57,865 nucleotides of DNA from a virus (taxonomy: Duplodnaviria; Caudoviricetes): the IMG/VR virus record IMGVR_UViG_3300044878_000063, positions 1 to 57,865 of that record; one strand, given 5' to 3'. This document shows, piece by piece, positions 183 to 57,535 of the stretch. The notes beneath the pieces were generated by a model. That model was not told where the DNA came from, did no database searches, and saw only the letters and a list, made by a program, of their open reading frames with translations. How positions within the stretch are numbered: the first letter of the stretch is position 1; each line of letters opens with the position of its first letter. The position numbers and the translations under genes were made by a program.

Positions 183-341
183 TCATCCACCAGTAGCACC
201 TCCTCCAGCAACCAACGTGAATACCCATGCGCCAATATGACATAGCGCAATGACCCACATGAGTAAGACGAAGAGAACGAAACTGGTGATCCCGAGCAAC
301 GCAGCAAATATGATGCTATGGAGCAATCGGGATGAAATCAT
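183..341 (-). CDS. Small membrane protein (52 aa), possible holin-like lysis accessory
   Basis: Hand-translated MISSRLLHSIIFAALLGITSFVLFVLLMWVIALCHIGAWVFTLV...; ATGA overlap with endolysin stop; not in ORF track. Confidence 0.65.
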   Translation of the reverse strand: MISSRLLHSIIFAALLGITSFVLFVLLMWVIALCHIGAWVFTLVAGGGATGG

Positions 342-1459
342 GCGTACCGTCGGTTGATTTCGGCCTGTACGGCATTGAAGTGAACTCCGAGAGCTGCACG
401 ACGTGCATCTCCATTGCCATATTTGCCTGCGAGAGTTTCCTCAACAAGCTGACCGATATTTACGCCACCATTGAGACGACGGTTGACCTCAGCCTGAACG
501 GCAGCGTAGTTCGCACCGAGCTTGGCGATACGCTGTTCACCGGAACCGTAGGCTCCAGCAATAACCTGATCGGCAAGCCATGCGATGTTGGGTCCCTGAG
601 GAGCAACACCACCGCCACCGGTACGAGCATTGATGACAGCCTGAACCGCGTCGTACTGCGCACCCAGTGAAGCGCGTCGAGCATCACCATTTCCGTGTTT
701 GCCCTGGAGGACTTCATCAGCAAGCTGATCGAGAGTCTTGGCCTGAGCCGGAGCTACGCCAATTCCATGACGACGGTTGACCTCAGCCTGAACCGCGTCG
801 TACCTCCCGCCAAGGGAAGCGCGTCGTGCCTCTCCGGAGCCGTGGAGACCAGCGATGACTTCATCGGCGAGCTGCCAATCTGTCTTCGCCTCGACGGGAG
901 GAGTTGCAGGGGTGGGTGCGACTACGGGAACTTCGACAGTGCCGTTTCCGCTGAGAATTCCGTTTGCGAAATCTCGCGTGCGAGGCATGAGCATCCAAAG
1001 ATTTCCGCCAGGGCAAGCAGTGGAGGACCACTGACGATGACCCTGGTAGCTACCTTCCGAAACTGCGCCCCAGCCGTAACGAGCTGCGATATCGGCGAGA
1101 AGTTCCACGACTGCCGAGTATGCCGCTTCGGAAATAGCCCAGGAATGCGGATCGTTGTCATTGCCGTTGATCTGACCCGATTCATTCTCCACCTCAAAGG
1201 TGATTGCAGGACCATCAGCTGCGATGGAGCCCGAGGTCCATGCACGGTACTCTTCCGGAACCTGACCCCAGATGGTGCCATCGTTCAGAATGTTGTAGTG
1301 AACCGAGGCCGGAGCATTCGGGTCAGTGAGACGCCGGGTACCCGCGCCATTCATCCCAGCATGATGGTGCTGAATTACTCGGACGACAGAATTGCCGTGA
1401 CGAGAGGAGAATTTGTTGTGATGGGGGATGGTTCCCGAGATGAGACTGGAAAATGTCAT
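338..1459 (-). CDS. Endolysin: N-acetylmuramoyl-L-alanine amidase (Amidase_2) with four Cpl-7/CW_7 cell-wall-binding repeats
   Basis: IQHHHAG, ASVHY, FEVEN, GHRQW..TACPG zinc-amidase motifs; four LADEV.AG..G.G..RR..LG..Y.AVQ..VN repeats. Confidence 0.92.
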   Translation of the reverse strand: MTFSSLISGTIPHHNKFSSRHGNSVVRVIQHHHAGMNGAGTRRLTDPNAPASVHYNILNDGTIWGQVPEEYRAWTSGSIAADGPAITFEVENESGQINGNDNDPHSWAISEAAYSAVVELLADIAARYGWGAVSEGSYQGHRQWSSTACPGGNLWMLMPRTRDFANGILSGNGTVEVPVVAPTPATPPVEAKTDWQLADEVIAGLHGSGEARRASLGGRYDAVQAEVNRRHGIGVAPAQAKTLDQLADEVLQGKHGNGDARRASLGAQYDAVQAVINARTGGGGVAPQGPNIAWLADQVIAGAYGSGEQRIAKLGANYAAVQAEVNRRLNGGVNIGQLVEETLAGKYGNGDARRAALGVHFNAVQAEINRRYA

Positions 1460-3630: not shown

Positions 3631-6393
3631 CTAGGGCTTAGGCTTAGGTGGATTGAGAGATGTGTCAAGAGTACTCACTGATACCCCAAGAGCAGCAGCA
3701 ATCTCAGACTGTGAATGACCATTGATCAGCATAGACTTAGCCCTAGTCAGCTTAGCTGAGGTCATTACCTGCTTCTCTCTAGGAGTAGCAAGGCCCTTGA
3801 CTACATCAAGATCAGCATTGGCAAGGATCTTCTCCAACATGTTGGTACTAATAGCACCAGCCTGGATAGCTTCCCATTCAACGGGGGTAATCTTGATACG
3901 CTGGGGTTTAGCACCCGTTCTAGCACGGCCTTCTGCCTGAGCAAGACTCTTAATCTTCTTCAGTTCAGCAGCATCCATGTTCGGATTAGCCTGTACCTTG
4001 GCCTGTACTATGCCACCTGCAATCAACTGGGCATGGCGTTCAAGAGGCTTGTTCTTGAGGGCGATGTTCAGCTTTGCATTGAGGGCACTTACCTCATTGG
4101 GGTAGGCCTTCTTTGCTGACTGGGAGTAAGGAATAGGGACGGCATTAACTGCCTCTTTCCTACTGTCATTAGCCAGAGCCTTGAGCCTATTGGCATGGTT
4201 GGCATAGACATTCTCCATGATGGTGTTCTCTTTAGACACCAGTGCATGAGCATCCTCATAGTAATCCATCTTCTTGACCTTAGTGGTCTTAGGGATGGGG
4301 TTACCTACAGGGAGCTTAGTTACTGGGTCATACCGATAATAGCCATTACCCGTTTCAACATAGACCTTCTTACCAGTCTTCTTGTCAATAGGGCCACCAT
4401 CTTTGGCAGAACGGAGTACTCTCTCAGGAACACGTACTTCAGACTTGGCCTGTGAGATGATGGTTGATGCACCACCAGCTTTACCAGAAGGCTTCATCTG
4501 ATACTGCTTCTTTAGGGCAGCAATACCATTGTCCTTGGCAGATTGCTTGTAATCGAGGTGGTGTTTCTCAGCATCAATCACGACCATTGAGTGTTTCACT
4601 GCACGAGCAATCTCACTAAAGGGTGCGCCCTTAATGGTCATGTCTGTAATCAGGTTCGACACATCACCCATCTGCTGACCCTTAGCCTTAGCCGACATTC
4701 TAGGAGCGTCGTCAGGCAGGGAGTACAGTTTCTTGGGGTCGAAGTTCTTAAGCTCCTTCAGTGGAGCCGAGACCTTTACTCGACCAGGCCCTGATTGTGG
4801 ATTCGGGATTACCAGTACCGTGTCACCATCGAAGTCTGCACCAGACAACTGTTCGGCAACCTTGGCATTGATACCAATTGCATCTCGAGCTTGCTTGATA
4901 ATGCTGTTTGCTTCACGGTTCTTGTTATTGACCGTCAGTTCAGGGATCTCAAAAGTTCCACCATGGGGGTGTCGAATGAGAACTACCTTTTCACCATCCC
5001 TATATTTAGGGGCGAATACTTCGGTATCCTTGAGGCTGTTGATCGGCAAGATGACGTGATTAGCAGTACGAGGCAGACCTGCTGCTTTGAGATGTACAGC
5101 TGAAGAGTCGGAACCATCTGCGAACTTCTCCAGAAGGGTCCTTTTCACAACCGGGTTTGTGAGGGCCATGATTTCGTCGTATTCTTGCTTTTTGAGATCG
5201 AAGCTTGCGTCAAGCTGCTTCTTTGCAAGAACAGGGCTCTGCTTAGACATCATCTGTGAAGAGAGTTTACTGGACCACTTGGTCCAGTCGCCTTCCTCGT
5301 TGACAATGTTCAGTGCTGAGGTGACGGTTTCAGAACCATCCTTGTTTTTCTTTGTGATTTGCTTTACGGCAGAACCAAAGGGGTTTGGGTCATCAGGATC
5401 GCCTTTCTGATCCTTCATGGCCTTCAGCTTGTCGCCTTTATCCGATTTATTGGTGTTGAACATCAGGTCTACACCATCAGGAAGGTTATCTGAGTAGATC
5501 GCCATTCCCTTTAGGTAGTGAGTGCCATTTACGCCAATTCGAACTTGAGCATAACGAGCATTCCCCATATCGAGGTCTTTTACGCCACGACGAATCTCAA
5601 TTACACCATCTTTATCGGCTCCGCCATCTTCAGCGTACCGAACGCCTACTCGCTTGAGTGAAACGTTAAGAGGAGGCAACATTCCGAGATTCGTGAAGGT
5701 GCGACCGCCATCAGGAGAATCGCCAAGAAGCGGAACAATCTCTTTCTGCCTTTTTACGACATCAGAGTAGGTCATATCACCTGCGGTCAAGACTTTCAAG
5801 CTGGTGAACTTACCAGGGTTTCCCATTTGCGGGATCTTGACATAGTGAACCTTGTAGCCCTCTTCTTTAAGCACATAAATTGCTGTGCCGAGGCGTTCGT
5901 TACTAACACCGAGATGGTTCGCCGTTCCGGCTCCAAAGTCGACCATTTTCTTTTCGTCGACCTGCTTGCGGACAATATTCGCAGTTGCCTGGATGGCGTC
6001 CTGATTGTCTTTCTCCGCAGCAGCAAGAAGTGCTCGAACAGAAGATTCGTTTCTGCCCATCTGTCGGCCAATGGCCACATTAGACATTCCGGTACCCTGG
6101 AGCTTCAAAGCTTCAGCAATATCGGCACGTTTGATCTGTTCGTTGGAAGTAGAGGTAAGAGCACGAAGCTGCGTCGTGTTCATCTTATACTCTTTACCAT
6201 CAGCATCCACACCACTAAACGCTGCCGCGATTTGGGTGGGGGTCATTCCCTGCTTCTGGAGATCTTCCAAATGCTTCTTGAAGGATCTTGCACGTTGTTC
6301 CGGATTGGCACCGCTGCCCCAAGGGTAACGGCCTGACTTGCGAAGAACGCCTTCATGCCGGAGGAAGCTGGAATTAGTCATGTCTTTGCTCAT
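3631..6393 (-). CDS. Single-subunit two-barrel RNA polymerase (YonO / QDE-1-like) with HTH domains, 920 aa
   Basis: QLSGADFDGD (ADFDGD at 4822-4839), IRHP, AQVRI...KGM, G.VSN, HS..VIDAEK; N- and C-terminal HTH segments; AGAAAGGAG RBS before ATG 6393. Confidence 0.8.
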   Translation of the reverse strand: MSKDMTNSSFLRHEGVLRKSGRYPWGSGANPEQRARSFKKHLEDLQKQGMTPTQIAAAFSGVDADGKEYKMNTTQLRALTSTSNEQIKRADIAEALKLQGTGMSNVAIGRQMGRNESSVRALLAAAEKDNQDAIQATANIVRKQVDEKKMVDFGAGTANHLGVSNERLGTAIYVLKEEGYKVHYVKIPQMGNPGKFTSLKVLTAGDMTYSDVVKRQKEIVPLLGDSPDGGRTFTNLGMLPPLNVSLKRVGVRYAEDGGADKDGVIEIRRGVKDLDMGNARYAQVRIGVNGTHYLKGMAIYSDNLPDGVDLMFNTNKSDKGDKLKAMKDQKGDPDDPNPFGSAVKQITKKNKDGSETVTSALNIVNEEGDWTKWSSKLSSQMMSKQSPVLAKKQLDASFDLKKQEYDEIMALTNPVVKRTLLEKFADGSDSSAVHLKAAGLPRTANHVILPINSLKDTEVFAPKYRDGEKVVLIRHPHGGTFEIPELTVNNKNREANSIIKQARDAIGINAKVAEQLSGADFDGDTVLVIPNPQSGPGRVKVSAPLKELKNFDPKKLYSLPDDAPRMSAKAKGQQMGDVSNLITDMTIKGAPFSEIARAVKHSMVVIDAEKHHLDYKQSAKDNGIAALKKQYQMKPSGKAGGASTIISQAKSEVRVPERVLRSAKDGGPIDKKTGKKVYVETGNGYYRYDPVTKLPVGNPIPKTTKVKKMDYYEDAHALVSKENTIMENVYANHANRLKALANDSRKEAVNAVPIPYSQSAKKAYPNEVSALNAKLNIALKNKPLERHAQLIAGGIVQAKVQANPNMDAAELKKIKSLAQAEGRARTGAKPQRIKITPVEWEAIQAGAISTNMLEKILANADLDVVKGLATPREKQVMTSAKLTRAKSMLINGHSQSEIAAALGVSVSTLDTSLNPPKPKP

Positions 6394-6409: not shown

Positions 6410-6997
6410 TTATCCGACGAGGTCTTCGAACATCTCTTCGAGGATGCGATCGCTGGTCTTGATGCGATCAATTACGTAGACTAGGTCTTCAATGCCGGGG
6501 GACCAAGCTTCATAATCATCATTCTGGTAGATTCGAAACTCGACAAAGTCGAGATCGCCTGGTAGAAAGTCATACTCGAGCATGAAGAAGCCTGCATAGA
6601 TCAACAGCTGATCGAATGAGGCTCTAGAGACTCCGGTTTTGAGATCGAAGATGCGAAGCTCATTCCGCATTTGACCATCGACTTCAATTGTTCGAAAGCC
6701 AATAGCATCTGCAGTACCGAAACTTCGAATCGAATAGAACAAGACCTGTTCCGGCGTCATGTTGAAGCCGATTGAGTCATTGACGTATCGATTCAGGGTT
6801 TTCCCATTTCGGGGAAGCTTCTGCCGCATCTTGATACACATAGCCGCGAAGTTGTGGAGCTCAGTTCCTTTGGCAGCCTGCAGCTGCGTCAAGAACCAAT
6901 TCTGAAGCTTCTCTTTCGAGTACCTCAGCCAGTGATACTTACTCGCGGAAAGCGTGGCGTGCTTACCTGCGAGATGTGAATGAGCGTTGAAGATCAT
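6410..6997 (-). CDS. PD-(D/E)XK (Cas4/RecB-like) nuclease
   Basis: HATLSAS, GTELH, GTADAI, IFDLKTG, QLLIYA. Confidence 0.8.
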   Translation of the reverse strand: MIFNAHSHLAGKHATLSASKYHWLRYSKEKLQNWFLTQLQAAKGTELHNFAAMCIKMRQKLPRNGKTLNRYVNDSIGFNMTPEQVLFYSIRSFGTADAIGFRTIEVDGQMRNELRIFDLKTGVSRASFDQLLIYAGFFMLEYDFLPGDLDFVEFRIYQNDDYEAWSPGIEDLVYVIDRIKTSDRILEEMFEDLVG

Positions 6998-7277
6998 TAA
7001 GAACAGCCTCTTTGTTTTCCGGGTAGATGACTGAAGCGTAGGACATCCGATTGAATTGATCGATGTACCACTCTTGATTTGGTCGGAAGGGGGAGTTGGC
7101 GCTCCGCTTCACTTCTAGCACTGCCCAACGATCTCGCCATAGAATCAGGCGATCGGGAATTCCCTGTCGCTGACTCGAGTCGAGTTTGAACATGTAGCTG
7201 CCCGGGAGTATCAACTCCGTGACATCATGATAGAGATCCGCTTCGAAAGCGCTCTCTAGTTTGGTAGCTCTTGGCAT
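6963..7277 (-). CDS. VRR-NUC domain nuclease / resolvase
   Basis: LESAFE, GIPDRLI, LEVKR, RPNQ; start reassigned to ATG 7277. Confidence 0.85.
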   Translation of the reverse strand: MPRATKLESAFEADLYHDVTELILPGSYMFKLDSSQRQGIPDRLILWRDRWAVLEVKRSANSPFRPNQEWYIDQFNRMSYASVIYPENKEAVLNDLQRSFTSRR

Positions 7278-7333
7278 GAGACCAATCCAATCGCAAAAAT
7301 TATAGGCCATGGAATTTCGACATCCTGGCCCTT

Positions 7334-7360
7334 TCATTATAGGGCATGTATAGCTTGCGT
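7334..7360 (-). promoter_or_regulatory. Isolated copy of the 27-bp phage promoter upstream of the nuclease-RNAP operon
   Basis: ACGCAAGCTATACATGCCCTATAATGA on -; same spacing as the array copies. Confidence 0.8.
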
Positions 7361-7387
7361 GTTCAATGTCCGAAAAACCCGGCTTAG

Positions 7388-7709
7388 TGGCCAGTTGGCC
7401 AGAAAACCCATTTGTGGACAAAACTCTTTATATATACCTTTTTTCTCCTCACACAAAAGTTTTAGGAAATAAGTGGCCAAATGGCCAACTTGGACAGGAT
7501 TGATGCCTTGTGGGCGCTAAAAGGGGCTGAATTGAGCCGTTTTCGACCCAAAACAGCCCCTTTTTTCGGACATTGCCCACAGAACTGCTGGCCACTTTTG
7601 AAACCGTTTCTGGCCATATGGCCACCACTTTTGGCCACGAGCCCAAAAACTTGGACAGAAACGCCCACAAGATTTCAAAATAAGTGGGCAGATGGCCACT
7701 TAGTGGCCA
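7388..7709. repeat. TGGCCA-repeat non-coding region, putative replication origin
   Basis: 10 perfect TGGCCA palindromes plus near-matches and an AT-rich tract (~7420-7445). Confidence 0.6.
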
Positions 7710-18819: not shown

Positions 18820-21800
18820 TTAATCTACGAGACCTTGGAAGTCGCCGAACTGAGAAATGGTCTCCACGGCAGAATCGACAAGACCGTTGAAGTAGTTCAG
18901 GTCAATATCATCTTCTTTGCCATGGAATTCCACGAAGTCCGCTTCAAGCCATTCGTAGCCCTTGGTTCCCGTGGCCGCATCGAACTTGCCGTCCTTCTCC
19001 CTCATGAGGAGCGCACCACCATGTTCAGGCTTGATCGGGCAGAAGAGCCCACCCTTACCTACGAACTTCATTGCGCCCTGAGGATCAGCCAGCGCCATTG
19101 TGCTCACGCTTTCGAAATCGAGATACAGTGCAGTCTTGACATGCTTCTCTTCGCACTTGTCCCGGAAGGTCAGAGGCTCCTTGCTGAACAGAGTCTTGAA
19201 TACGTACGGGTGCTTGAATTGCGCACCAGTTGCATCCCACTTACCGATTTCAGAAGGATCAGGAGACCAACCAACCTTGGCGATGTATACGGCCTTGTTG
19301 ACCAAGCAGAATTTGCTGTAGGTCTTCTCGTGCTCGAATTCATAGCCGTACTTCCGACCGAACTCCATGATGTCCTTGATGATCTGAGCATTCTTGTCAG
19401 GAACATTCGGAATCTTGATCGAGTCCGTCTTGATGTGGATTGCTTCATATCCACGCTCCTGAACAAAGTGCTTCAAATCAATCATGAAGAGCGCACCTCG
19501 TTTCGCAACGATGTTGTCGATGTTGTTCGGGTCCTTGAACGGGTTGGAGAACCGTGCCGATGTAAGACCGTAGACAATGTTGATCACAATCTTCAGAGCA
19601 TAGGAGAGGGCCTTGGCCTGTTCCTTAGTCCCCAAATATGGCGCAAGCTGTCCATTGAGAAGCGTACGAGCCTTGTCGAAGTCGTTGTGCTTGATCGCCA
19701 AACGAGCCTCAACGAGCTCCCAGAACTTCGGCGTGTATTCGGGACCGAAGAGATTCAGCTGGTTGATGCTGGTTGGATGCATGGATGCAATATCCAGCAC
19801 GATAACGTCCTCGTAGATACCCGGTTTCTCGTGGACGTAGCCACCTTCACTGGGATCTTCGCCTCGGTACGTGCTCTTGCCGAAGTCATACTTGTAGCCC
19901 GGGAACATCTTCTCGAGCTTGGTGTAGATGAACTGCTCCTGAGGACGACGATCATTTCCGAAGATGATCTTGGCAGTATGCCTCGCAGTGGTGTCGTTAA
20001 CTGACAGCCCACTAAGTGACGCCAGAATTTGACGAGCAACGAAGTCCTGCTCACGATCTTCAGCAACCTGTTCAGTTGTGATGACGTCGTTGACACAGTA
20101 CTCTTCAACCTCAGCCCAACGTTCCTCAGGGACTGGACGGTCCCAAGGAATACCGAGTTCTTTGTGACGAAGGCCCAGTTCAATCTGGAACTTCTTCAGC
20201 GACTGCTTCTTCGATGAGTAGTCGTAGATATCGGCAAAGGACAGGTTGTATGCCTCACCGAACTTAGCAGTCGCCTCACCACTGATCAGACGCTGACTCA
20301 GCGCGTAAAGAGCCGCATTGTCATAGCCGAGATATGCCGCATACAAGATGTGGTTGTCGTAGTTGCGGTTGTAGAAGCCGACGAGTTTCAGCTTCAGGAG
20401 CTGTTCGAGCTGCCGGGATGTGGGGTTGATCATCCGAACAACTACGTCACTGCCCTTTCGCTTGTAGCAGATCATGAAGAGGTTCATGAAGACTTCAACG
20501 TCGTAGTAGTAGATCTCGTCATCTACTGGAGCATCGGGTTTGATGAATGCCGAGGGGGTGACCTCAGACTGATTCTCCGGCATGTCTTCCGACTTGAACT
20601 TCATTTCCTTGACAGTCCTGAAGCAAGCCAAAGCCTGATTACTACTGAGTGCCGCAAACGTGAGGATCTTGGGCTTCAAGTCCTGGACGTCATAAGTGAG
20701 GCCGGAGGCATGTGCATCATCAAGGATTTTCTTGATGAAGTCTACACTCGGCTTCGTTGCATTGTGATACTCTTTCTTGAGGTTGCCCTCGATCAATGAG
20801 CGAATTGTCTTTTCGCTCTTGACCACATCACTGTTTAGCACAGCTTTTTTCTCCTTTAGGGGCAGTCCACTACTAATTGTGGCAATGGGAATGTTATTGC
20901 ACTTAAGCAGCCGACGCCGTAGCGAGCTATCACCGGTGAATACTTTGACTTCGATACCATCATCGTATACGCGGGAAAGCTCCGATACATCCCCGTCGTA
21001 GATATAATGGAGGTGTACGCCTGCCCCACTTTTCGAGTACTCAGCGTAAGTACTGGGCCAGTTGCTAGCAGCTTCGAGATTTCTCTCCGACGATTTCTGT
21101 CCGCCAGCATCTTTGAGATCAAAGTCGATAATGATATGGTTGTCAGGTGGTTTGACATAGTGCAGCTTGGTCGTGTCGATATCAGACAGTTTGGTGGTAA
21201 CATCTGCCCATTTCTTAAGTGGAGTCTCATTTTGGGTAGTGTACTGAGCGGGCTGTTCGCTGTACATGATATCCAGGATTGATTCCGTCTCATCCATAAC
21301 CAGCGAAAAGACTTTCTCATCCTTCTTAGTAGGAGCCTTGTATCGCTCGGCATTAAATCCCGAGTACCAACTCCGTACGCGAGTATCTCCTACCATTGCT
21401 CGCTCCTCGAAGTTGTCGAAATAGTTCTTCAGCTCCTCTCGAAGTTTCATCCGGTTCATTTGGAATTCGAAACCAGACTCAGTGCAAAATGTCTTGTACA
21501 TCTCATAGGCCTGCTGGAGGGTTACTCCATCCTGCTCTTTGAAGACTTCGTAGTACGCCTCAATGAAGTTGAAGAATACGTCAGTCTGAAGCATCATCTG
21601 AATAGGGACGTAACCAGAATATGCGTCACGTCCCATGCTCCGATATACATCAAGACAATGGTGAGCGATTGCACCGAGCTCAAAATCTATCTGAGCCATC
21701 AATGCTTGATACTTACGTGCAGTCAGCTTATTACCTGATGGATGCACGTCAATCATACGACGAATAAGACCTGACTTCGCATCAGTGATCTTGACTGCTT

Positions 21801-22632
21801 TGTTAGTAGCCATGATCAGGAATGAGCGAATTCGCATTGTGTGCTGGGGCTTATATTTCTCATTGATCGTCATGGCGTCGTGGCCTACGATCGAGTTCAA
21901 TTTGGTGTTGTCCTCGATTTTCGACATGTCACCATCAGGATCGATTGCTACAAGGGGGTTAGTCTTGAATGCTTCCGTCGCAAATGCATTGTTGCCCGTG
22001 AGAGCTTTAGCTTCAAATGTGGTGAAGTAGCCCTCGAACAACTTCATGATGATCTCGATAATGGTACCTTTACCCGCGCCGGGAGCTCCATAGAATACCA
22101 AGAACTTCTGGATCTTCTTGGAGTCTCCCGACACAATAGCGCCGATAGCCCACTCGATTTTGGCACGCTCTTCTGGTTCGTAGAGTGTGCCAACGATTTC
22201 GTCCCAAGCACTAATGTCTCCGGGAGCCAACGGATACGGAAGACGGCGACTTACATAGTCGGTCTTCTTTACCTCGCTGTTGCTAAAGGTAAGGTTTTCG
22301 TCGAGCTGATGTGCGGAGTCTGACAGATGACCAATATAGTTGCGAAACTGTCGCCAGCTACTACTACTGTAGTCATTCATGTACCGTACAAAGACCGTAC
22401 CGTCGTGCCTCTTCTTCACTTGATCTTTATGACGATCGAGCATTTCATCAACTAGACGCGGTACATCATATTCGTCATCAGACCAAACGCCCTTGGCTTC
22501 ATCCCAAATTGCATAGAAGGACTTGCCTTGAACCATAAGATCTTTTGAACGCATGACTCGAAAGTCTGGCACGATCTCAATCTTTTCGTTCTTCTCAGGC
22601 ATTACTTTGACTCGACAGAAATCCAATTCCAT
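18820..22632 (-). CDS. SF3 helicase - AEP primase - family B DNA polymerase fusion (1270 aa)
   Basis: GAPGAGKGT; IDFDLK...SKSGAGVHLHY; exonuclease YDVE, N..YD; PolB DIASMHP, KIVINIVYG, IKTDS. Confidence 0.88.
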   Translation of the reverse strand: MELDFCRVKVMPEKNEKIEIVPDFRVMRSKDLMVQGKSFYAIWDEAKGVWSDDEYDVPRLVDEMLDRHKDQVKKRHDGTVFVRYMNDYSSSSWRQFRNYIGHLSDSAHQLDENLTFSNSEVKKTDYVSRRLPYPLAPGDISAWDEIVGTLYEPEERAKIEWAIGAIVSGDSKKIQKFLVFYGAPGAGKGTIIEIIMKLFEGYFTTFEAKALTGNNAFATEAFKTNPLVAIDPDGDMSKIEDNTKLNSIVGHDAMTINEKYKPQHTMRIRSFLIMATNKAVKITDAKSGLIRRMIDVHPSGNKLTARKYQALMAQIDFELGAIAHHCLDVYRSMGRDAYSGYVPIQMMLQTDVFFNFIEAYYEVFKEQDGVTLQQAYEMYKTFCTESGFEFQMNRMKLREELKNYFDNFEERAMVGDTRVRSWYSGFNAERYKAPTKKDEKVFSLVMDETESILDIMYSEQPAQYTTQNETPLKKWADVTTKLSDIDTTKLHYVKPPDNHIIIDFDLKDAGGQKSSERNLEAASNWPSTYAEYSKSGAGVHLHYIYDGDVSELSRVYDDGIEVKVFTGDSSLRRRLLKCNNIPIATISSGLPLKEKKAVLNSDVVKSEKTIRSLIEGNLKKEYHNATKPSVDFIKKILDDAHASGLTYDVQDLKPKILTFAALSSNQALACFRTVKEMKFKSEDMPENQSEVTPSAFIKPDAPVDDEIYYYDVEVFMNLFMICYKRKGSDVVVRMINPTSRQLEQLLKLKLVGFYNRNYDNHILYAAYLGYDNAALYALSQRLISGEATAKFGEAYNLSFADIYDYSSKKQSLKKFQIELGLRHKELGIPWDRPVPEERWAEVEEYCVNDVITTEQVAEDREQDFVARQILASLSGLSVNDTTARHTAKIIFGNDRRPQEQFIYTKLEKMFPGYKYDFGKSTYRGEDPSEGGYVHEKPGIYEDVIVLDIASMHPTSINQLNLFGPEYTPKFWELVEARLAIKHNDFDKARTLLNGQLAPYLGTKEQAKALSYALKIVINIVYGLTSARFSNPFKDPNNIDNIVAKRGALFMIDLKHFVQERGYEAIHIKTDSIKIPNVPDKNAQIIKDIMEFGRKYGYEFEHEKTYSKFCLVNKAVYIAKVGWSPDPSEIGKWDATGAQFKHPYVFKTLFSKEPLTFRDKCEEKHVKTALYLDFESVSTMALADPQGAMKFVGKGGLFCPIKPEHGGALLMREKDGKFDAATGTKGYEWLEADFVEFHGKEDDIDLNYFNGLVDSAVETISQFGDFQGLVD

Positions 22633-48484: not shown

Positions 48485-49288
48485 TTAGAGTGAGCTGATG
48501 TTGTATGACTCATCGTCAATCATGATGGCTGACGGCCAATTGATTGCAAAGGTATTTGCATCGAGCATGGAGATTGCTTCATCCGGACCGGTTGCAGTCC
48601 ACGTGCCATCACCATTATCGATGATCTTAAGAAGCGCATTGTCGACGAAGAGCTCGAGCAATTCTGAAGGAGTTGGCATTTTTGGAGGCGTATCTTCAGT
48701 GCCATATAGGAAGTCTTCGATAGCCTCCATTGCCCATGGATATACCACTCGGGAATCCAACACAACATGCGCCGTATAGCGAACTCCAAAAAATGGATCT
48801 TCGAACCTAACCTTCTGAGTCGAGATGTCCCAAGAAAATGTCGAAGGTTCGGTATCATCATTTAGGCTCTCATAGTCCTTAGACGATGGCGATGCTAGTG
48901 CATTGTAGACTAGATGAATCTTGTATGCGTGGTCCAAACCTTCAATGTCATTACCGACTTTAGTTCGATAAGCAAGGTTGAACCGCTTTTTGTTTTGCTG
49001 ATAAACCTGGAGGCCATTAGCCAGAGACTCAGAACCTTCGCAAGCCTCAAACTCTCTTGGGTAAGTGAATGCCTCAATCGATGCGTTGAAATGCTCGGGC
49101 CTTGAACGATTCACAATCTTATGACCATCAAGATACGTGGCTCGTGCATCACCTCCGGAAGGAGACTCGGATACGGAAATTAGACCAATCCAGGGAACGC
49201 CATCCTGTCCATCAATGTAAAGAACGCCTCGATCGACGCCAGCTTCATAGAACTTATTGGCAGTGCCATCCCATGCGAGTCTTGTCAC
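48485..49288 (-). CDS. Major-tail-like protein (second paralogue)
   Basis: MTRLAWD...GVDRGVLY, IEAFTYP, YKIHLVY. Confidence 0.8.
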   Translation of the reverse strand: MTRLAWDGTANKFYEAGVDRGVLYIDGQDGVPWIGLISVSESPSGGDARATYLDGHKIVNRSRPEHFNASIEAFTYPREFEACEGSESLANGLQVYQQNKKRFNLAYRTKVGNDIEGLDHAYKIHLVYNALASPSSKDYESLNDDTEPSTFSWDISTQKVRFEDPFFGVRYTAHVVLDSRVVYPWAMEAIEDFLYGTEDTPPKMPTPSELLELFVDNALLKIIDNGDGTWTATGPDEAISMLDANTFAINWPSAIMIDDESYNISSL

Positions 49289-49891: not shown

Positions 49892-50761
49892 CTAGCTGTA
49901 CTGGAAGGACCAGTCGTTGTCGGCAGTCGGCGGGAACTTGTAGCCTGCTGCGGGTGCAGCCGTGACCATCGTGTCCTCGGTGATGACGACCTGACCGGTC
50001 TTCTTGACACCATTGATGAAGTAGTCGACGCCCGTGGTGGTCGGGATCGTGATCTCATCCGTGGTGGGGTTGTACGTCGGTGCTGCGGGCATGTCAGTGA
50101 CCGTCAGTTCGGTTCCGACGATCGAAGCGACCTCTGCCGGGAGGGGCAGACGAGGATCGACACCAGCGGTACCGTACAGGATGTTCTCGAGGTCGGCCAG
50201 CTTGGCAGCGTCAACCTTGGTCGAGTCAATCGTGAGCTGAGCCGTGGGGCGCTTGCCGGGGACATCCACCGGAGTGGTGCTGATTTCCCAGCTGAGCGGC
50301 ATCGGTTCGGTGGACTCGTTGATCGTGGCGTATGCACGCTCGGAAGGAGCAGCCATACCGCCGTAGATCAGGTGCAGCTTGTAGCCGTAGTCCGTACCCA
50401 GGATGTCATTGCCGACCTTGGTGCGGTATGCCAGACCGAAGGTTTCGCGGTTCTGCTGACCGATGAACACACCCGGGGTGAGCTCGGCGGTACCGTCGCA
50501 GGCCATGAATTCGTCGGGGTAGGTGAACGCTTCCAAGGAGGCCGCGAACTCTTCCGCAGAAGTGATGTTCGCGTAGACCTTGTTGTCGGCGTAGTGCTTG
50601 CTCGACTCGGCGCCCGAAGGGCTCTCCGTGACAGCAGTCAGACCGATCCAGGCGTAGCCCTTGTTGTAGACGCCTTCGGCATTGCGGCGAAAGAGAACGC
50701 CCTTGTCGACGCCGGTCTCGAAGATTTTCTTCCCCGGCTGATCCCATGTCAGTTGAGTCAT
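49892..50761 (-). CDS. Major tail protein with C-terminal Ig-like domain
   Basis: GVDKGVL, YADNKVY, EAFTYPDEF; strong codon bias. Confidence 0.9.
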   Translation of the reverse strand: MTQLTWDQPGKKIFETGVDKGVLFRRNAEGVYNKGYAWIGLTAVTESPSGAESSKHYADNKVYANITSAEEFAASLEAFTYPDEFMACDGTAELTPGVFIGQQNRETFGLAYRTKVGNDILGTDYGYKLHLIYGGMAAPSERAYATINESTEPMPLSWEISTTPVDVPGKRPTAQLTIDSTKVDAAKLADLENILYGTAGVDPRLPLPAEVASIVGTELTVTDMPAAPTYNPTTDEITIPTTTGVDYFINGVKKTGQVVITEDTMVTAAPAAGYKFPPTADNDWSFQYS

Positions 50762-51399: not shown

Positions 51400-53610
51400 C
51401 TACGCGGTGTAGGTGAAGACCCAGTGACGGGTGCTCAGCGGAGCCAGGTAGTAGCCAGCCTTCGGCTCAGCATCGACGTCGGTGGTCTCGGTCATGTTGT
51501 AGGTGCCCGTAACGACTTCACCGTTGATCAGGTAGTCAACGCCAGTCACCGTGGGGATGGTGATGACGTTGCCCGTCATGGTCGGGGCTGCCGGAGTAGC
51601 CTCGGTACCCTGATCGCGACGGATGACCAGAGCCGACTTGGGCTTGGTCAGTGCGCCGGAGCAGCGGGTTTCCAGCAGGTACTTGTGCTGGTTGAAGTCG
51701 ATGTCGAAGTCCTCGAAGAACGTGAGTTCTCCGCCCTTGTTGGAACCGACGGTGTAGTCGATCAGGTTGACGATGATGCCGAGCAGAGTCGGATCTTCCT
51801 CCATGACCTCGACGGCCACGATCTCCTTGACGCGGATTGCGGCAGCCAGAGCAGCTTCGGTCTCGTAGAGACGACGGCCCATCTTGTCCTTCAGCAGCAG
51901 GAGTTCGGTGAGAACCGAGTCCGTGGTGTAGAAGGTCGGGGAGCCGGAGCCACGGTAGTTGGTACGCGAGCGGGTGATCTCATCGATCATCACGTCGGGT
52001 GCAACGTTCGCAGCCAGCTGAACCTTGTGGGCGTAGAGCTCGTGGTCGTTTGCCACGGAGCGAATGCCGATGCCGTCGACCTGACCCTGGGGGTCCTTGA
52101 TCTTGTCGGCGTGACCCACGGTGCGACCATCGCCGATGAGGATGGCGCGAGCAAGTTCCTCGTTGAGCATGAAGCGGATTTCCCACTTCAGCCAGGCAAC
52201 GACGTCCAGGTCCGTGATGTCCAGGATGTCATCGCGGTCCAGCTTCTGCTTCTTGTAGATGGTCGTCGGAGCAGTCGTGCGCTGCATGAGCACAACGACT
52301 TCTTCCTTCTTGAGGTCGCCCTTGGTGTAACCCTTGGCGCGAGCTTCCTCGGCGGTCAAGTCGGCGAGGATGGTCTTGACCTTCGCGAACGGGGAGTGCT
52401 TCGTTGCGGAGAGGACCTTGGTGACCCACTCGGTCTGGCGAGCGATGAGCTCCGGGGAGTTCTGCTGAACCCGAGCGTCCGGGAAGAGGACGTCGATGTT
52501 GGTGATGCCGTAGTCGGCGTGGTTCAGGACGAAGCCCTCGAAGGCCTCCTTGTAGGAGCCCGTCTTCTGAGCGAGGGTGTTGATCTCTTTGAGATCGTCG
52601 TGGGACAGCGTGGGACGCTGTTCGACAGCGCCTCCACCGGCGTTGGATTCGAATGCCTTGTACTTCATGGTGTCGGAACCTTCCTGAGTGTGCTTGAGAT
52701 TGGGGTCGTCTTCGGAGTCTGAAGACTCGTCAGTGGTTTCTTTGGAATCTTCGTCAGATTCGGATTCGGCCTTGGAGGCTTCCTCTTCCTCTTTCGATTC
52801 TTCTTCTTGGTGCTGAACTGATTCTTCGGAATCCACTTCGGATTCTTCGAGAGCTTCGCCGATCAGTGCGTGAACGACGCCGAGCTGAGTCGGAGTGAAC
52901 GAGTCGAGGACTTCATCCACATCGATCTCTTGGTCGGTTTCTTCATCGTGCAGGATAACTCCTGCCTCGTCGTCATCGTCATCATCGAAGTCGGCATGTT
53001 TGACCGAGCCCGATGCTGCCTGACTGACGAGAGCGTAAAGAACCGTCTTCTGCTTCTGATTCATGGTCGCCACAATGTCAGCAACCGATTCATCGTCATC
53101 AGAAGATTCATCTTCTTCAGCGTGGTAGAGGGTGGGCGCTTCATCCCAATGGATGATTACCTCACCTTCCATCATGTCAGAACCATCGCCACTGTGGTGA
53201 AGGTTGACATCCTCGATGAAGGCTTCGGGATTTGCACCCCGATAGACGAGACTAACCTCGCCGATCATGCCATGAATGACATCGCCACCACGCTGCTTGA
53301 GCTTGTTGGCGAAGATCGACAGAGCCTTGATGTCACCGTGCTGGACCATCGCCTTTGCGTGGCGACCGCGTTCGGTGTTGTTGAAGTACGCTTCGGTGTA
53401 GATGCCGTCTTCGCGGTGGAAGAGGATGGCATGGCCGAGTACGTTCTCAACGTTGTCGTGCTGGTGCTGCCAAACGAGCGGCACCTGCTGACCGTCCTGA
53501 TGCAGGAATGCGCCGTGCTTGATCGTTCGACCATCGGAGCACTCGCGATCAAATCGAGTCGCATAGCCTGTGAAATCAGGCAGTCGAGTTTTCGTCTTCG
53601 TGACTGTCAT
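51400..53610 (-). CDS. Prohead protease - acidic scaffold - major capsid fusion (736 aa)
   Basis: FTGYA, PLVWQHQH, LSI, EVSLV..GANP protease motifs; acidic linker; EELARAILIGDG. Confidence 0.9.
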   Translation of the reverse strand: MTVTKTKTRLPDFTGYATRFDRECSDGRTIKHGAFLHQDGQQVPLVWQHQHDNVENVLGHAILFHREDGIYTEAYFNNTERGRHAKAMVQHGDIKALSIFANKLKQRGGDVIHGMIGEVSLVYRGANPEAFIEDVNLHHSGDGSDMMEGEVIIHWDEAPTLYHAEEDESSDDDESVADIVATMNQKQKTVLYALVSQAASGSVKHADFDDDDDDEAGVILHDEETDQEIDVDEVLDSFTPTQLGVVHALIGEALEESEVDSEESVQHQEEESKEEEEASKAESESDEDSKETTDESSDSEDDPNLKHTQEGSDTMKYKAFESNAGGGAVEQRPTLSHDDLKEINTLAQKTGSYKEAFEGFVLNHADYGITNIDVLFPDARVQQNSPELIARQTEWVTKVLSATKHSPFAKVKTILADLTAEEARAKGYTKGDLKKEEVVVLMQRTTAPTTIYKKQKLDRDDILDITDLDVVAWLKWEIRFMLNEELARAILIGDGRTVGHADKIKDPQGQVDGIGIRSVANDHELYAHKVQLAANVAPDVMIDEITRSRTNYRGSGSPTFYTTDSVLTELLLLKDKMGRRLYETEAALAAAIRVKEIVAVEVMEEDPTLLGIIVNLIDYTVGSNKGGELTFFEDFDIDFNQHKYLLETRCSGALTKPKSALVIRRDQGTEATPAAPTMTGNVITIPTVTGVDYLINGEVVTGTYNMTETTDVDAEPKAGYYLAPLSTRHWVFTYTA

Positions 53611-54880
53611 TTTGAAGGTTCTCCTTCCTTTCTTGAGTTGCTTCCGGTGGTTTGTCAACCTTGCCGACGTTGTCCTCATTAGGCATGTTAGCGTTCTGCA
53701 GTTTGTCTGCTTTGGCTTCCTTTGAGGGCTTCATGCCGATTGCTGATCGCATCTCGTTGCCAGTGACAATCTCATTACGAGAAAGCTTGTCTCCGATTTC
53801 GGCAATGTCTGCAAGTGTTGCGTTCTTGAATGGATCACGGTAGAACCGCATGGCATGACCCTGAGCGCGGGCCGTTTTGGAGATGAACTTTCGTTCAATA
53901 CCTTCTGCAATGGCGGTCAAGATGGGCTCCACAGTGCGGTTGTGGTAGTTGATCATCATCTTCTCATCAGCCGTACCCTCGAAGACTTCCTTAGTCATAC
54001 CCAGCTGCGAGTACAACTGCTTAGTCAAGAATTCAACCTGAGCAAGCATGTTGTTCTCGGCGGGCCGATTCAACTGAGTGATCTTCTCGGTAGCATCGGC
54101 ATAAGCGACGCCATACTTGGAGTTGTAGAGCTGCTCTTCCATGTCTTGACGGCGCTGTGCTGCCTGAGCTTTTCGAGTGTCAGACTTGACAACGTATGGA
54201 AGTTGGATGATGATGTCGAGCTTGCCGGAACCGGCCTGCTCATCGATCGCATCAAGAAGACTGAGCTTACGAGTCAACCGCTTTAGGGTGGAGTTGTCGT
54301 CGTTCATCACGGCATACATCGGATTTTCGATGATCGCCACATGACGCTTTTCAACAGTTAGCTCTTCCCGGTTACCAGTGTCTTCGTTGTACACGAGGAC
54401 ACGAACATACTCGGGAAACCACCCTACAACTTCACCAATGCGAAGCTTCTCGATGTTGTAAGACATCGACTTGGCTGGATCGCCATCGGCTTCCATGATG
54501 CAAAGTGCAGCAACGCCCTTATCGAAGAGTGCCATGACGATGTTCTGTCGAAACTGTCGACCAGCTTCGTCAATGTTGGCCTCGTATAGAAGACAGTCAT
54601 TGATTCCGCTATTTTTAACGTTCTCGATGAACTGATCTGTTTCGAGATCAACGCGCACGTGCCGAATCGGAATTGCAGCAACATCCATAGCCATTTGGTT
54701 ATAGATCGATGTGATGACGGATTTATCACCAGAGTAGCCAGGTCGCGTTCGACTAGGATTGAACCCATAGCTTCCCGCAGAACTACTCCCCCATGACCGC
54801 ATTCGTTCTTCAACTTTGAAAGGCTTGAATTCTCCTCTTGCGTGCGTCAACACATTTTTAAATCGATCAAATATTCCCAT
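53576..54880 (-). CDS. Portal protein (HK97-like)
   Basis: Between TerL and protease; DVAAIPI, TVEPIL, TGNEMRSAIGM. Confidence 0.9.
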   Translation of the reverse strand: MGIFDRFKNVLTHARGEFKPFKVEERMRSWGSSSAGSYGFNPSRTRPGYSGDKSVITSIYNQMAMDVAAIPIRHVRVDLETDQFIENVKNSGINDCLLYEANIDEAGRQFRQNIVMALFDKGVAALCIMEADGDPAKSMSYNIEKLRIGEVVGWFPEYVRVLVYNEDTGNREELTVEKRHVAIIENPMYAVMNDDNSTLKRLTRKLSLLDAIDEQAGSGKLDIIIQLPYVVKSDTRKAQAAQRRQDMEEQLYNSKYGVAYADATEKITQLNRPAENNMLAQVEFLTKQLYSQLGMTKEVFEGTADEKMMINYHNRTVEPILTAIAEGIERKFISKTARAQGHAMRFYRDPFKNATLADIAEIGDKLSRNEIVTGNEMRSAIGMKPSKEAKADKLQNANMPNEDNVGKVDKPPEATQERKENLQNDSHEDENSTA

Positions 54881-54922: not shown

Positions 54923-55327
54923 CTACTGTTCGCGGACCTTGAATGAATCACCACGAAGCATGTGCAGATACTGCTTGCCAGCATCCTTATGCTTGGGCTG
55001 GAGATCGCTGACTTTAACACCCTGAAGGTGCTGAGCCATCTTCAACTCCCACTTACGACTCTTCTCAAGATATTTGGTGCCCTTGTAAGACAAGCGCATA
55101 CCTTTGCGAATCTTTCGAAAGTTCCCCCATTTGGAACCTTTGTACTGCAGCTTGGCTCCCCGCTTGGTAAGCCTGGCAGATTTCTTCTCGAGCCGAATGG
55201 CTTTCTTAGAAGCTCTTGCAAAAGTGCGAGAGGCATTACCTCTTCGAACCCCCCATTTCATTCCTTTAACACCGATGTGCTCCAGAAAATCATCTACGGG
55301 GTCATTAGCGACTAGCTTGTCACTCAT
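54923..55327 (-). CDS. Basic HxGVKGMKWG-motif protein, probable head-internal protein
   Basis: DFLEHIGVKGMKWGVRR. Confidence 0.75.
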   Translation of the reverse strand: MSDKLVANDPVDDFLEHIGVKGMKWGVRRGNASRTFARASKKAIRLEKKSARLTKRGAKLQYKGSKWGNFRKIRKGMRLSYKGTKYLEKSRKWELKMAQHLQGVKVSDLQPKHKDAGKQYLHMLRGDSFKVREQ

Positions 55328-57078
55328 TCAAACGACTCCTTATTTGCTTTGTATGCAATGTACGCATCCATTAGTGCGGCCACGTTGTCGATCTTCTGAT
55401 CTCGACGAGTCTTCAGAAGTTTTCGGTTGCCGTTGTTATCTTCCAAAGTAATGGCATTGCCCATGGCAAAGCTCATAAGCTTTTGGTTAAATATGAGCTT
55501 CTTCTGCTCACTCAGCTGCTTGAGTTCACCAAGTGGAACAGACTCAGTCCGTGCACCCTGAGGAACTTTCTCAATTCCGAAGGGTCCATTTTCCTGCTCC
55601 CAACGAGCAACGAATTCTTTAGCATTGTAAGGGTCGAATCCGAAGGTCCTAATATCAAACTTGTTCAGTTCGATAAAGTTGTCCAGATCGTCGTAGACTT
55701 CCATCATGTCAAGAACAGTCCCCTTCATAACATGAAGGCTTCCTTCTTGGATGAACTCCTCATATTTCTGACGAGGACCGCTAGACAGCTTGAAGTGAGT
55801 GTTTTGAGAAATATAGCTTCGGGTGATTATCCCAAACTTCTCATCGCGCATAGGAAACAGGAAAGTGAAGGCACAGAAGTCATCACCCTGTGAGAGGTCG
55901 GCTCCCAAAGAACAAGGTAGGTTCCAGAAGTTTGGTACACGTTTATGAGGGAGCGTCTCGTCGTAGGTGAAGAAGTACGTATATCCTTCCATGGGAATTC
56001 CGAAACGCTTAGCCAGGATATCGTTCTTAGAAGCAGGTGCTTTCTCAGCTCGTTCGACATCTCTCTGGTAAGTATCGTAGGATACCGTAAGCCCGATATT
56101 GGGCTGTGCCTTAGGCCACATGCGGTGGTCGGCAACCTCAGCGAGTTCATCGAGTTTGTAGTGCCAGATTGAGACGTGCGGGGCATAGTACTCCCCCTTC
56201 AGAATGTCGGCTAGTTCCATCTTGACAGTGTCGCCACTGCCATTACGTACGGTGCCTTCAGAGCTGATTGCAACAATCAACCAGTTGCCATCACCTAGCT
56301 TAGAAGCACCCTGCTCAATAGCGCCAACGACATCTTCACGAACATCGCCGGACAGCCATTCATCAACCGTGGATATTTTGGGTCGTAGACCCTGGAGCTT
56401 ATCGACCTTCATAGGTCGAACCTCGAGAAGTGAACCCGTTAGGAAATTCTCGATGCCCTTTTTGGTAGACGCAAGTTTGACACGGTTCATCCGATTGCCT
56501 GTGGTGTTCTGCAATGACCCCTCAGTGAGGAATTTAAACAGAGGACCCCGCGAGCGCGTGATGGCCGTGCGGAATGGCGACATGACTTCATCAGCCTGCT
56601 TCATTGTAGGAGCAGTCGTGATTTGATGAGAAGTTTCTGTGTCTACATTCAGGAAGTAGCTTTGGATGCACTCAGCGTACATCGATTTGGCAGCACCTCG
56701 TGCAACGATCAAATATTGCTTTACTGTGAGTCGCCTCTTGAAAACCTTCTGAACGAATTCCCCGCCATGATTGTCAGGCGAGGGTTCATAAACAGTGAGT
56801 TTTTCGAAGTAATACCAACCAAAGATTTGTTCGGCCCAGAGTTTGAAGCTATCCAACATGACGAAGTCTGAACCGTCAGTAAGAGTGAGCTCATTTTCAC
56901 AGTAGCTGATGAAGCCGTTGATCGCTAGGTCGTCGTAGTAGTAGAGAGGGTTGTCAATGAGTGCATCAATCCGATTCATCTCGGCACTGATCTCTTTACA
57001 TACGGGGATTTCTCCACGAACAACTCTTTCGCGGAATCTCCCATAATAAATGGGTACTGCAGTGTTTGATAGAGCCAT
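55324..57078 (-). CDS. Terminase large subunit
   Basis: VARGAAKS (variant Walker A), TVDEW, GADLSQGDD, FDPYN, KIDNVAA. Confidence 0.93.
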   Translation of the reverse strand: MALSNTAVPIYYGRFRERVVRGEIPVCKEISAEMNRIDALIDNPLYYYDDLAINGFISYCENELTLTDGSDFVMLDSFKLWAEQIFGWYYFEKLTVYEPSPDNHGGEFVQKVFKRRLTVKQYLIVARGAAKSMYAECIQSYFLNVDTETSHQITTAPTMKQADEVMSPFRTAITRSRGPLFKFLTEGSLQNTTGNRMNRVKLASTKKGIENFLTGSLLEVRPMKVDKLQGLRPKISTVDEWLSGDVREDVVGAIEQGASKLGDGNWLIVAISSEGTVRNGSGDTVKMELADILKGEYYAPHVSIWHYKLDELAEVADHRMWPKAQPNIGLTVSYDTYQRDVERAEKAPASKNDILAKRFGIPMEGYTYFFTYDETLPHKRVPNFWNLPCSLGADLSQGDDFCAFTFLFPMRDEKFGIITRSYISQNTHFKLSSGPRQKYEEFIQEGSLHVMKGTVLDMMEVYDDLDNFIELNKFDIRTFGFDPYNAKEFVARWEQENGPFGIEKVPQGARTESVPLGELKQLSEQKKLIFNQKLMSFAMGNAITLEDNNGNRKLLKTRRDQKIDNVAALMDAYIAYKANKESFE

Positions 57079-57097: not shown

Positions 57098-57535
57098 TTA
57101 CAATGGGCCAGTATATTTACTTAGCTTCATTACCTGACGTGCTGCCGGTGGTGCAGCAGCTGCAACTGCCTGTTTTGCCATCATTTTCTTGAGTGCTCTC
57201 AGATCATCGGTGGCATTGTTCATGAGATAAGCCTTAGCTTTCTGCTTACCCACGTCCAATAGAAGTTCGCCAACAATCTTTCGACCGTTAGAGATCTCAG
57301 GCTCAGTCAACTTCGTGTATTCCTTTTCGAGCTTGAGTCGATTGATTCGCTTCTTCAGCTCATCATCACTCATCTCATGGACCTTGGGTTTTGCGGCTTC
57401 CGCAGCAGCAGCCTCAGCTTTTGCTCGTTTTCGCCTACCCCATCGCATACCCTTCACACCAACATGTGCGAGTTGATCACCACTTAGGTCATCGATCCCG
57501 TTTGCTGCGAGGATATCAGTTGCGCTTCTTCCCAT
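57098..57535 (-). CDS. HxGVKGMRWG-motif protein, probable head-internal protein
   Basis: QLAHVGVKGMRWGRRK; MSDDELKKRINRL. Confidence 0.75.
   Translation of the reverse strand: MGRSATDILAANGIDDLSGDQLAHVGVKGMRWGRRKRAKAEAAAAEAAKPKVHEMSDDELKKRINRLKLEKEYTKLTEPEISNGRKIVGELLLDVGKQKAKAYLMNNATDDLRALKKMMAKQAVAAAAPPAARQVMKLSKYTGPL

Follow-up and report, generated by a model that had tools for sequence, protein, structure and literature searches.

Recurrent [LIV]-x-His sites in a phage protease-scaffold-capsid fusion protein as a candidate histidine cleavage code of a prohead protease

The fusion gene and its relatives

The DNA stretch analysed here, IMG/VR virus record IMGVR_UViG_3300044878_000063 (Duplodnaviria; Caudoviricetes; 57,865 nucleotides, in the following called the window in its full length), encodes on its minus strand a head precursor in which a prohead protease, an acidic spacer and a capsid domain are joined in one open reading frame (ORF), and in this spacer almost every histidine carries Leu, Ile or Val two residues upstream. 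The likely start of ORF 51400..53679(-) is M24 at position 53610, and the resulting 736-aa product matches P0001 with 100% identity. Residue numbers given for the fusion protein are those of the 759-aa ORF, and positions of all features are collected in Table 1.

The N-terminal part was matched by the Pfam profile Peptidase_S78 (PF04586) at residues 30-156 (E = 1.4e-8, 35.5 bits, cutoff 21). His72 and Ser121 (A3 positions 49 and 98) are invariant in an alignment of 81 sequences, as is Glu141, and, from the usual motif order of S78 proteases, the former two residues are presumably the catalytic ones. When the AlphaFold2 (AF2) model of this domain (predicted local distance difference test, pLDDT, 88.5) was compared with the PDB using Foldseek, all 47 ranked matches, of which 31 were listed, were herpesvirus assemblins, with a best E of 3e-4 (template modelling (TM) score 0.49) and TM scores of up to 0.50 among the matches listed. 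By profile match, conserved His and Ser residues and assemblin-like fold, the domain is an S78 protease. The capsid part was likewise assigned by profile and fold. Phage_capsid (PF05065) matched residues 441-685 (E = 6.3e-8, 32.8 bits, cutoff 24.2), and the AF2 model of ORF residues 331-759 (pLDDT 86.7; Foldseek E = 2.7e-12) was aligned by VIA-align to the HK97 capsid chain 1ohg_A with Z 16.9 and a root-mean-square deviation of 6.2 over 261 residues, to 6tb9_A5 with Z 17.7, and to 413 chains in total at Z >= 8. Strands past residue 361 of this model fall outside the HK97-fold alignments. The C-terminal β-rich add-on domain found there shares 51% identity (E = 2e-16) with the C-terminal end of the 49892..50761 product, i.e. 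the first of the two major tail proteins, so that head and tail of this phage would display the same small surface domain.

Searching 50,697 phage records with the fusion protein (tblastn) yielded 246 matching records, 203 of which cover at least 80% of the query, the best relative being 50.8% identical over 96%. Most matching records belong to phages of Arthrobacter (95), Gordonia (55) and Streptomyces (54), others to phages of Curtobacterium, Microbacterium and Rhodococcus, while weaker matches were obtained for Lactococcus, Bifidobacterium and Faecalibacterium phages. The gene is thus a single ORF with an N-terminal protease and a C-terminal capsid domain that resembles annotated members of its family over the full length. 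Such protease-capsid fusions have already been described for clusters AM and AU (available text of PMC5513430) and for AU/AM/BI/DJ/CC (available text of bioRxiv 10.1101/2020.01.10.891226).

Table 1 Features of the window discussed in the text (positions refer to the whole stretch, residues to the respective ORF)
Feature	Position	Strand	Remarks
Protease-spacer-capsid fusion gene	51400..53610	-	736 aa from M24; open frame reaches 53679 (759 aa)
S78 prohead serine protease domain	53212..53592	-	residues 30-156; His72 and Ser121 presumably catalytic
Acidic spacer/scaffold	52519..53211	-	residues 157-387; ten [LIV]-x-His sites
HK97-fold capsid domain	51610..52518	-	residues 388 to about 690
C-terminal β-rich add-on domain	51403..51609	-	residues about 691-759; common to major tail protein
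Site LHH	53194..53202	-	residues 160-162; putative release-site equivalent; A3 position 139
Site IIH	53149..53157	-	residues 175-177
Site LYH	53122..53130	-	residues 184-186; A3 position 163
Site VKH	52996..53004	-	residues 226-228
Site ILH	52948..52956	-	residues 242-244
Site VVH	52870..52878	-	residues 268-270
Site VQH	52810..52818	-	residues 288-290
Site LKH	52690..52698	-	residues 328-330
Site LSH	52600..52608	-	residues 358-360
Site LNH	52519..52527	-	residues 385-387; putative maturation site; A388 predicted as first residue of the mature capsid
Portal gene	53576..54880	-	upstream of the fusion gene
Portal L11-T12-H13	54842..54850	-
DUF7211 protein a	54923..55327	-	134 aa, basic; between TerL and portal; PF23847, E = 4.5e-13, 48.8 bits, cutoff 27
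Protein a L15-E16-H17	55277..55285	-	followed by IGVKGMKWG
Large terminase (TerL)	55324..57078	-	upstream of the fusion gene
DUF7211 protein b	57098..57535	-	145 aa; upstream of TerL; PF23847, E = 4.3e-8, 32.9 bits
Protein b L22-A23-H24	57464..57472	-	followed by VGVKGMRWG
YonO/RdRP-type single-subunit RNA polymerase	3631..6393	-	920 aa; phrog_4291, E = 0
RNA polymerase L11-R12-H13	6355..6363	-	F-L-R-H; tag-like N-terminus
First major tail protein gene	49892..50761	-	phrog_2645, E = 1e-114
Second major tail protein gene	48485..49288	-	phrog_2645, E = 7e-100
Endolysin gene	338..1459	-	Amidase_2 and four CW_7 cell-wall-binding repeats
Replication protein gene	18820..22632	-	1270 aa; primase/D5-like region (DUF5906) and DNA polymerase region (phrog_4210, E = 0)

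The [LIV]-x-His pattern of the spacer and its conservation

The original prediction had pointed to ten [LIV]-x-His triplets among the 11 histidines of an acidic linker between protease and capsid. A recount over residues 157-389 reproduced this number and exactly the same triplets, with histidines at positions 161, 162, 177, 186, 228, 244, 270, 290, 330, 360 and 387 and, as sole misfit, H161, the first His of an HH pair. The acidic character of the linker was confirmed as well, since 37 Glu and 32 Asp among its 233 residues (30% Asp/Glu) stand against 12 Lys and one Arg. Leu, Ile and Val make up 15.9% of residues 157-389, for which the binomial probability of at least 10 hits among 11 histidines is 9.6e-8, and not one of 200,000 shuffles reached 10. 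Moreover, the combination of His, position -2 and Leu/Ile/Val ranked first among 624 residue/offset/class tests, four orders of magnitude ahead of the runner-up (P = 1.5e-3). Based on these three results, the pattern is not a chance result. It is confined to the spacer when compared with the capsid domain, where only one of six histidines has Leu, Ile or Val at -2.

Conservation in homologues, which had been named as a check on the idea, was found: 782 of the 958 histidines in the aligned spacers of 119 homologues (46-78% identical overall) have Leu, Ile or Val at -2. The same holds for 815 of 1073 spacer histidines, compared with 181 expected, in a set of 149 representatives (clusters at 50% identity, query included), where His was the best-scoring residue in 143 and no other residue was comparably enriched. 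Within the same spacers, [LIV]-x-Tyr is mildly over-represented (181 of 718 vs 119 expected), and [LIV]-x-Lys (168 of 1686 vs 282 expected) and [LIV]-x-Arg (43 vs 67 expected) are under-represented. Spacer length varies from 136 to 517 residues across the family and the spacers align poorly, which indicates that the motif is upheld at individual sites instead of being passed on as one block. It is kept by all 59 IMG/VR loci with a delimitable spacer.

Two cultured phages display the same feature. In gp12 of Arthrobacter phage Circum (cluster AM), six of seven spacer histidines fit and the last one, in the second of two VLAH, precedes a YGIENIEILFPD block, while Lactococcus phage P092 likewise has six fitting histidines out of seven, the seventh having Met at -2. 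As far as sequences tell, the motif is thus common to phages with hosts from two phyla, Actinobacteria and Firmicutes. An origin of the pattern by chance or as an artefact of low complexity, which the biased composition of the linker might favour, is virtually negligible and was rejected on account of the shuffling and ranking results together with its recurrence in the 143 representatives and both cultured phages.

A logo of the 815 sites gives Leu in 58%, Ile in 27% and Val in 16% at position -2, and Ala (33%), Ser (26%) or Gly (11%), i.e. a small residue in 70%, directly after His, followed by Asp in 40% at the next position. An alternative to be considered is a switch function of the histidines in the acidic scaffold: by binding metal or sensing pH, they might, for instance, neutralise charge or cross-bridge spacers in the course of assembly, with the hydrophobic neighbour reflecting local structure. 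The spacer, with 30% Asp/Glu and a single Arg, has no titratable base other than His, and in the model several sites fall at the ends of helices; such a switch, however, predicts neither Leu/Ile/Val at exactly -2 nor Ala/Ser/Gly at +1, nor does it predict the placement of sites at domain borders or the replacement of His by Gln and Met described below. We consider it very unlikely.

Sites at the domain borders

The first two spacer histidines of the 81-sequence alignment, His162 and His186, are at least 90% conserved. In the AF2 model, the last protease strand (model residues 131-135) ends four residues before His162, which, judged from this model, is at the position of a release site. At the other border, the last spacer His lies 0-25 residues ahead of a conserved YGI.NI..LFPD block in the 149 representatives and, in a hand tally, has Leu, Ile or Val at -2 in 141 of them, or in 146 if Met is included. 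Of the two spacer helices modelled for the window, the second terminates at the corresponding His387, where model confidence dips, and LNH is followed by ADYGITNIDVLFPD.

The proposal that the mature capsid might start after LNH was supported structurally to within a few residues by VIA-align comparison of processed capsids with the AF2 model of ORF residues 331-759. The mature head form of HK97 gp5 (1ohg_A, chain 104..383; Z 16.9) aligns from model residue 56 (ORF 386), the D3 capsid (chain from 114; Z 16.0) from residue 56 as well, the capsids of T5 (chain from 164; Z 15.8) and DT57C (chain from 161; Z 15.9) from residue 54, and the gene transfer agent (GTA) capsid (chain from 89; Z 17.7) from residue 57. 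For HK97 gp5, we take residue 104 as the mature start, in agreement with the chain numbering of 1ohg. A PDB sequence search with the whole fusion protein gave no match at E <= 0.01, so that no experimental N-terminus can be read from the structure of a solved relative.

The motif outside the capsid gene

Two further proteins of the head module carry the motif. Proteins a and b, both small and basic, flank the terminase gene and are alike in one element only, a tag near the N-terminus consisting of L-x-H followed by [IV]GVKGM[KR]WG; in both, the above-cutoff profile match near the N-terminus identifies this part as DUF7211. A hand tally over 62 related loci gave 65 distinct tags, of which one is truncated at a contig end, with [LIV]-x-H in 51, F-x-H in four, M-x-H in one, L-x-Q in seven and V-x-M in one case. 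A Gln-specific viral protease has been reported to accept His and Met alongside Gln (available text of PMC2950840). The interchange of His, Gln and Met in the tags fits a residue bound in a pocket better than a metal ligand. As a separate observation, all four DUF7211 tags of one IMG/VR contig (locus L029) have Gln in place of His (Y/F-L-E-Q-A-G), and the capsid spacer of the same locus keeps His (5 of 7), with Gln as second residue (3 of 8).

The cultured phages again agree. Circum gp7 and gp9 contain L-A-H followed by the DUF7211 core near their N-termini, and gp11 opens with F-L-E-H. The leader of P092_008 has four histidines, all in the [LIV]-x-H context, the last one followed by the DUF7211 core.

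A similar N-terminus is found in the RNA polymerase of the window, which belongs to the YonO/RdRP type discussed in bioRxiv 10.1101/842583 (available text). Among 30 homologues (57-89% identical), its H13 does not vary and L11 reaches at least 90% conservation, while the N-terminus gave no Pfam match to DUF7211 and its likeness to the tag was judged by eye. Most of these homologues possess a second F-L-x-H about 28 residues past the first, where the window reads F-K-K-H, and the polymerase ends in a sigma-70 region 4/helix-turn-helix (HTH) domain. Finally, the portal contains V10-L11-T12-H13, just as the original prediction had stated. In a hand tally of the 36 homologues with a visible N-terminus (not de-duplicated), [LI]-x-H-[AG] occurs in 28, and the portal of P092 reads S-L-I-H at residues 6-9. 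The site is, however, gone in more distant portals, and the Circum portal is without the N-terminal His. The portal site is thus conserved among the closer relatives only.

Judged from the shared N-terminal site, DUF7211 proteins and RNA polymerase may be cargo that enters the head and is trimmed inside it. A coordinated maturation of internal proteins and RNA polymerase had been part of the original prediction: L-x-H is indeed present at the N-termini of the two DUF7211 proteins and the polymerase, whereas the internal proteins could be named only as those two, and packaging of these or of the polymerase into the head would follow by analogy. Other ORFs of the window with an N-terminal [LIVM]-x-H were not counted as cargo; the product of 6963..7421, for example, is an HNH-type endonuclease. 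A complex prediction of the protease domain with residues 1-50 of DUF7211 protein a (score 0.03, mark 0.32) speaks neither for nor against an interaction.

A candidate histidine-specific maturation pathway

Taken together, we consider it probable, at roughly 70%, that [LIV]-x-His marks cuts made by the fused protease, with a small residue following the scissile bond. All comparative evidence fits this interpretation, which was already the core of the original prediction, and from it and from the analogy to known prohead proteases we infer that cleavage takes place, which bond is cut and that cargo is loaded. In the corresponding pathway, the fusion protein would be a self-processing head precursor composed of S78 serine protease, acidic scaffold spacer and HK97-fold capsid domain. 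After procapsid assembly, the protease would cut after the His of [L/I/V]-x-His followed by Ala, Ser or Gly. One cut directly past the protease domain would free the protease, eight further cuts would break the spacer into peptides of 9-42 residues able to exit the shell, and the last cut, LNH|A388, would free the N-arm of the capsid. If all ten sites are cut, the predicted spacer pieces comprise 15, 9, 42, 16, 26, 20, 40, 30 and 27 residues, which could leave a procapsid. The same site would open the DUF7211 tag of the two basic head-module proteins, and a variant of it the phage RNA polymerase.

Several observations weigh against this interpretation. About a quarter of the spacer histidines of the representatives (258 of 1073) lack Leu, Ile or Val at -2, and the structural alignment fixes the start of the N-arm only to within a few residues. 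The folded protease domain itself contains five [LIV]-x-H and the capsid domain one, and, for the His code to be correct, these must be shielded by folding. His is replaced by Arg, Gln, Ser or Asn in the eight most distant portals, and phages with a His-less portal, Circum included, keep the spacer motif; a check for co-variation of His-less portals with His-less spacers found no His-less spacer among the 59 measurable loci with which to compare. The best-conserved part of DUF7211, GVKGMKWG, comes after the His and would stay on the product, unlike the targeting leader of T4, so that the tag His may be conserved for another purpose. Conservation of the RNA polymerase His is less telling since it lies inside an otherwise invariant block. 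In addition, the literature searched contained no mature terminus, peptide, processed band or virion protein chemistry for this phage group.

Three of the five protease-internal sites are conserved as [LV]-x-H-[AG], namely LGH-A (81-83), VQH-G (112-114) and VIH-G (134-136). These may be self-destruction sites or merely structural; internal sites exist in some herpesvirus proteases (available text of PMC4498786).

The two findings on the tag and the polymerase would also suit a docking or encapsidation motif, i.e. a [LIV]-x-His element binding protease, scaffold or inner shell, with cleavage, if any, occurring elsewhere, and the many repeats per spacer resemble those of avidity motifs. Yet a small residue after His combined with a hydrophobic residue at -2 is the known cut-site pattern of the assemblin clan, the sites coincide precisely with both domain borders and with the point where mature capsid chains begin in the structural alignment, and a spacer that is never removed would remain in the head alongside the DNA. 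Docking in place of cleavage thus appears unlikely.

It is more improbable still that the motif directs cleavage at another scissile bond or by a host protease instead of the fused S78 domain. The position of the bond is deduced by analogy only, and some phages do employ host proteases, as known for the staphylococcal phage 80alpha. On the other hand, the enzymes of HK97, T4 and herpesviruses all cut directly after the residue that follows hydrophobic-x, and in all homologues examined the substrate is joined to a complete protease whose presumed catalytic His and Ser do not vary. The occurrence of the motif in phages of both actinobacterial and firmicute hosts also argues for a phage-borne enzyme.

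Cleavage after His by the fused protease is hence preferred, and its extensions are put forward with considerably more reserve. That the same site also serves the loading and trimming of DUF7211 proteins and RNA polymerase is possible, though we would rather doubt than assert it. Equally tentative is the broadest version, according to which a supercluster of Actinobacteria and Firmicutes phages (AM/AU/AW/BI/CC/DJ, Lactococcus P092-like and Faecalibacterium phages) might use one His-specific prohead protease code that releases the protease, dissolves the scaffold, matures the capsid, and loads and trims a changing set of basic proteins as well as a YonO-type RNA polymerase, the latter being injected with the DNA.

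Relevance and genomic context

The S78 family is very large. To our knowledge, cut-site codes are available for only a few prohead proteases, those of T4, phiKZ/SPN3US, HK97 and herpesviruses, and we know His specificity before the scissile bond to be rare among proteases in general. In the literature searched, no paper described a phage protease that cleaves after His, and none dealt with DUF7211. One phrase search on His before the cut site returned no match concerning a phage, and a search for Arthrobacter phage mass spectrometry turned up only ArV2, whose protease and capsid protein are encoded separately. Summer et al. reportedly described related Rhodococcus phages, ReqiPepy6 and ReqiPoco6, including virion proteomics, in 2011, which may bear on the present claim.

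If true, a His-specific code would represent a new specificity for this protease clan. Once it is confirmed, the sequences of hundreds of SEA-PHAGES genomes and thousands of metagenomic relatives would directly reveal mature termini and head cargo, and the idea that phages of this group inject an RNA polymerase of their own could be put to the test. Harmless cultured relatives are available with Arthrobacter phages Circum, Mudcat and Gordon as well as Lactococcus phage P092.

The remaining genome also contains hallmarks of the fusion group, i.e. paired major tail protein genes, a far-end endolysin and the 920-aa RNA polymerase. The two paralogous major tail protein genes are separated by a 187-aa ORF, and duplication of this gene has been reported for cluster AU/AM phages (available text of bioRxiv 10.1101/2020.01.10.891226). 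The endolysin gene is situated at the low-coordinate end of the window. If the contig ends join, the head module comes to lie right downstream of this gene, an arrangement known from clusters AM and AU (available text of PMC5513430). The replication protein listed in Table 1 unites primase/D5-like and DNA polymerase regions.

Comparison with known prohead protease systems

Closest to the present system are the published fusions of the AM/AU group, Circum gp12 among them, which fall into its gene family (44-51% identical across 95-98% of the length) and have the same neighbours, namely TerL, a small protein, portal, fusion and two major tail protein genes. The available parts of the respective papers (PMC5513430; bioRxiv 10.1101/2020.01.10.891226) mention the fusion only and name no cut site, specificity or tag. 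The fused gene was thus already known, while the proposed His-site code, which comparison strongly supports, would be new as a variant of such systems.

HK97 shares the Pfam families of both protease (gp4; MEROPS S78) and capsid, its scaffold (delta domain) is fused to the capsid, and its maturation site aligns with the cut predicted here. In contrast, the HK97 protease is encoded by a separate gene and Lys precedes the cut (the gp5 record reads F-N-K103 followed by S104), while [LIV]-x-Lys is depleted in the spacers of the present family. By hand count, six of 13 Lys in the HK97 gp5 delta domain (locus L065, residues 1-104) have Leu, Ile, Val or Phe at -2, K103/S104 included, and several of these are followed by Ser or Ala; judged from this sequence, a hydrophobic-x-Lys rule may apply to the HK97 enzyme.

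Phage prohead proteases share the fold of herpesvirus assemblin (available text of PMC5694885), with which the Foldseek matches of the protease model agree. The herpesvirus enzyme (pUL26) has the same fold as the protease of the window, although sequence identity is only 9-16% among the matches listed. It is organized as protease, linker and scaffold, with a release site right after the protease and a maturation site at the capsid-binding end, the sites of pseudorabies virus being YLQA-T and VQA-S (available text of PMC4498786). Differences are the Ala before the cut and the separate gene for the capsid protein.

In T4, gp21 likewise cleaves after hydrophobic-x-defined residue, at sites such as ITE-6 and LTE-619, i.e. 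(L/I)-x-E; many cuts reduce the scaffold to small peptides, and N-terminal leaders of internal proteins are removed at the same motif as the scaffold (available text of PMC5694885). Here, however, Glu takes the place of the His predicted for the window, and the T4 protease is of family S77, whereas that of the window is an S78 enzyme fused to its substrate. Moreover, the conserved part of the DUF7211 tag follows the site and does not precede it. Motif and position of this tag would match targeting of the T4 type, by analogy to which loading and removal might also occur.

The giant-phage S80 proteases (phiKZ gp175, SPN3US gp245) provide the parallel for a wider range of substrates. According to the available text of PMC5694885, S/A-x-E (A-x-E in SPN3US, S-x-E in phiKZ) is common to capsid, ejection proteins and virion RNA polymerase subunits, and the propeptides carry multiple sites. 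These systems differ from the present one in protease family, residue before the cut and the multi-subunit nature of the RNA polymerase. The known sites of the clan consist of a hydrophobic residue, any residue and a defined residue before the cut, and [LIV]-x-His followed by Ala, Ser or Gly is, by analogy at the sequence level, the same pattern with His as the defined residue.

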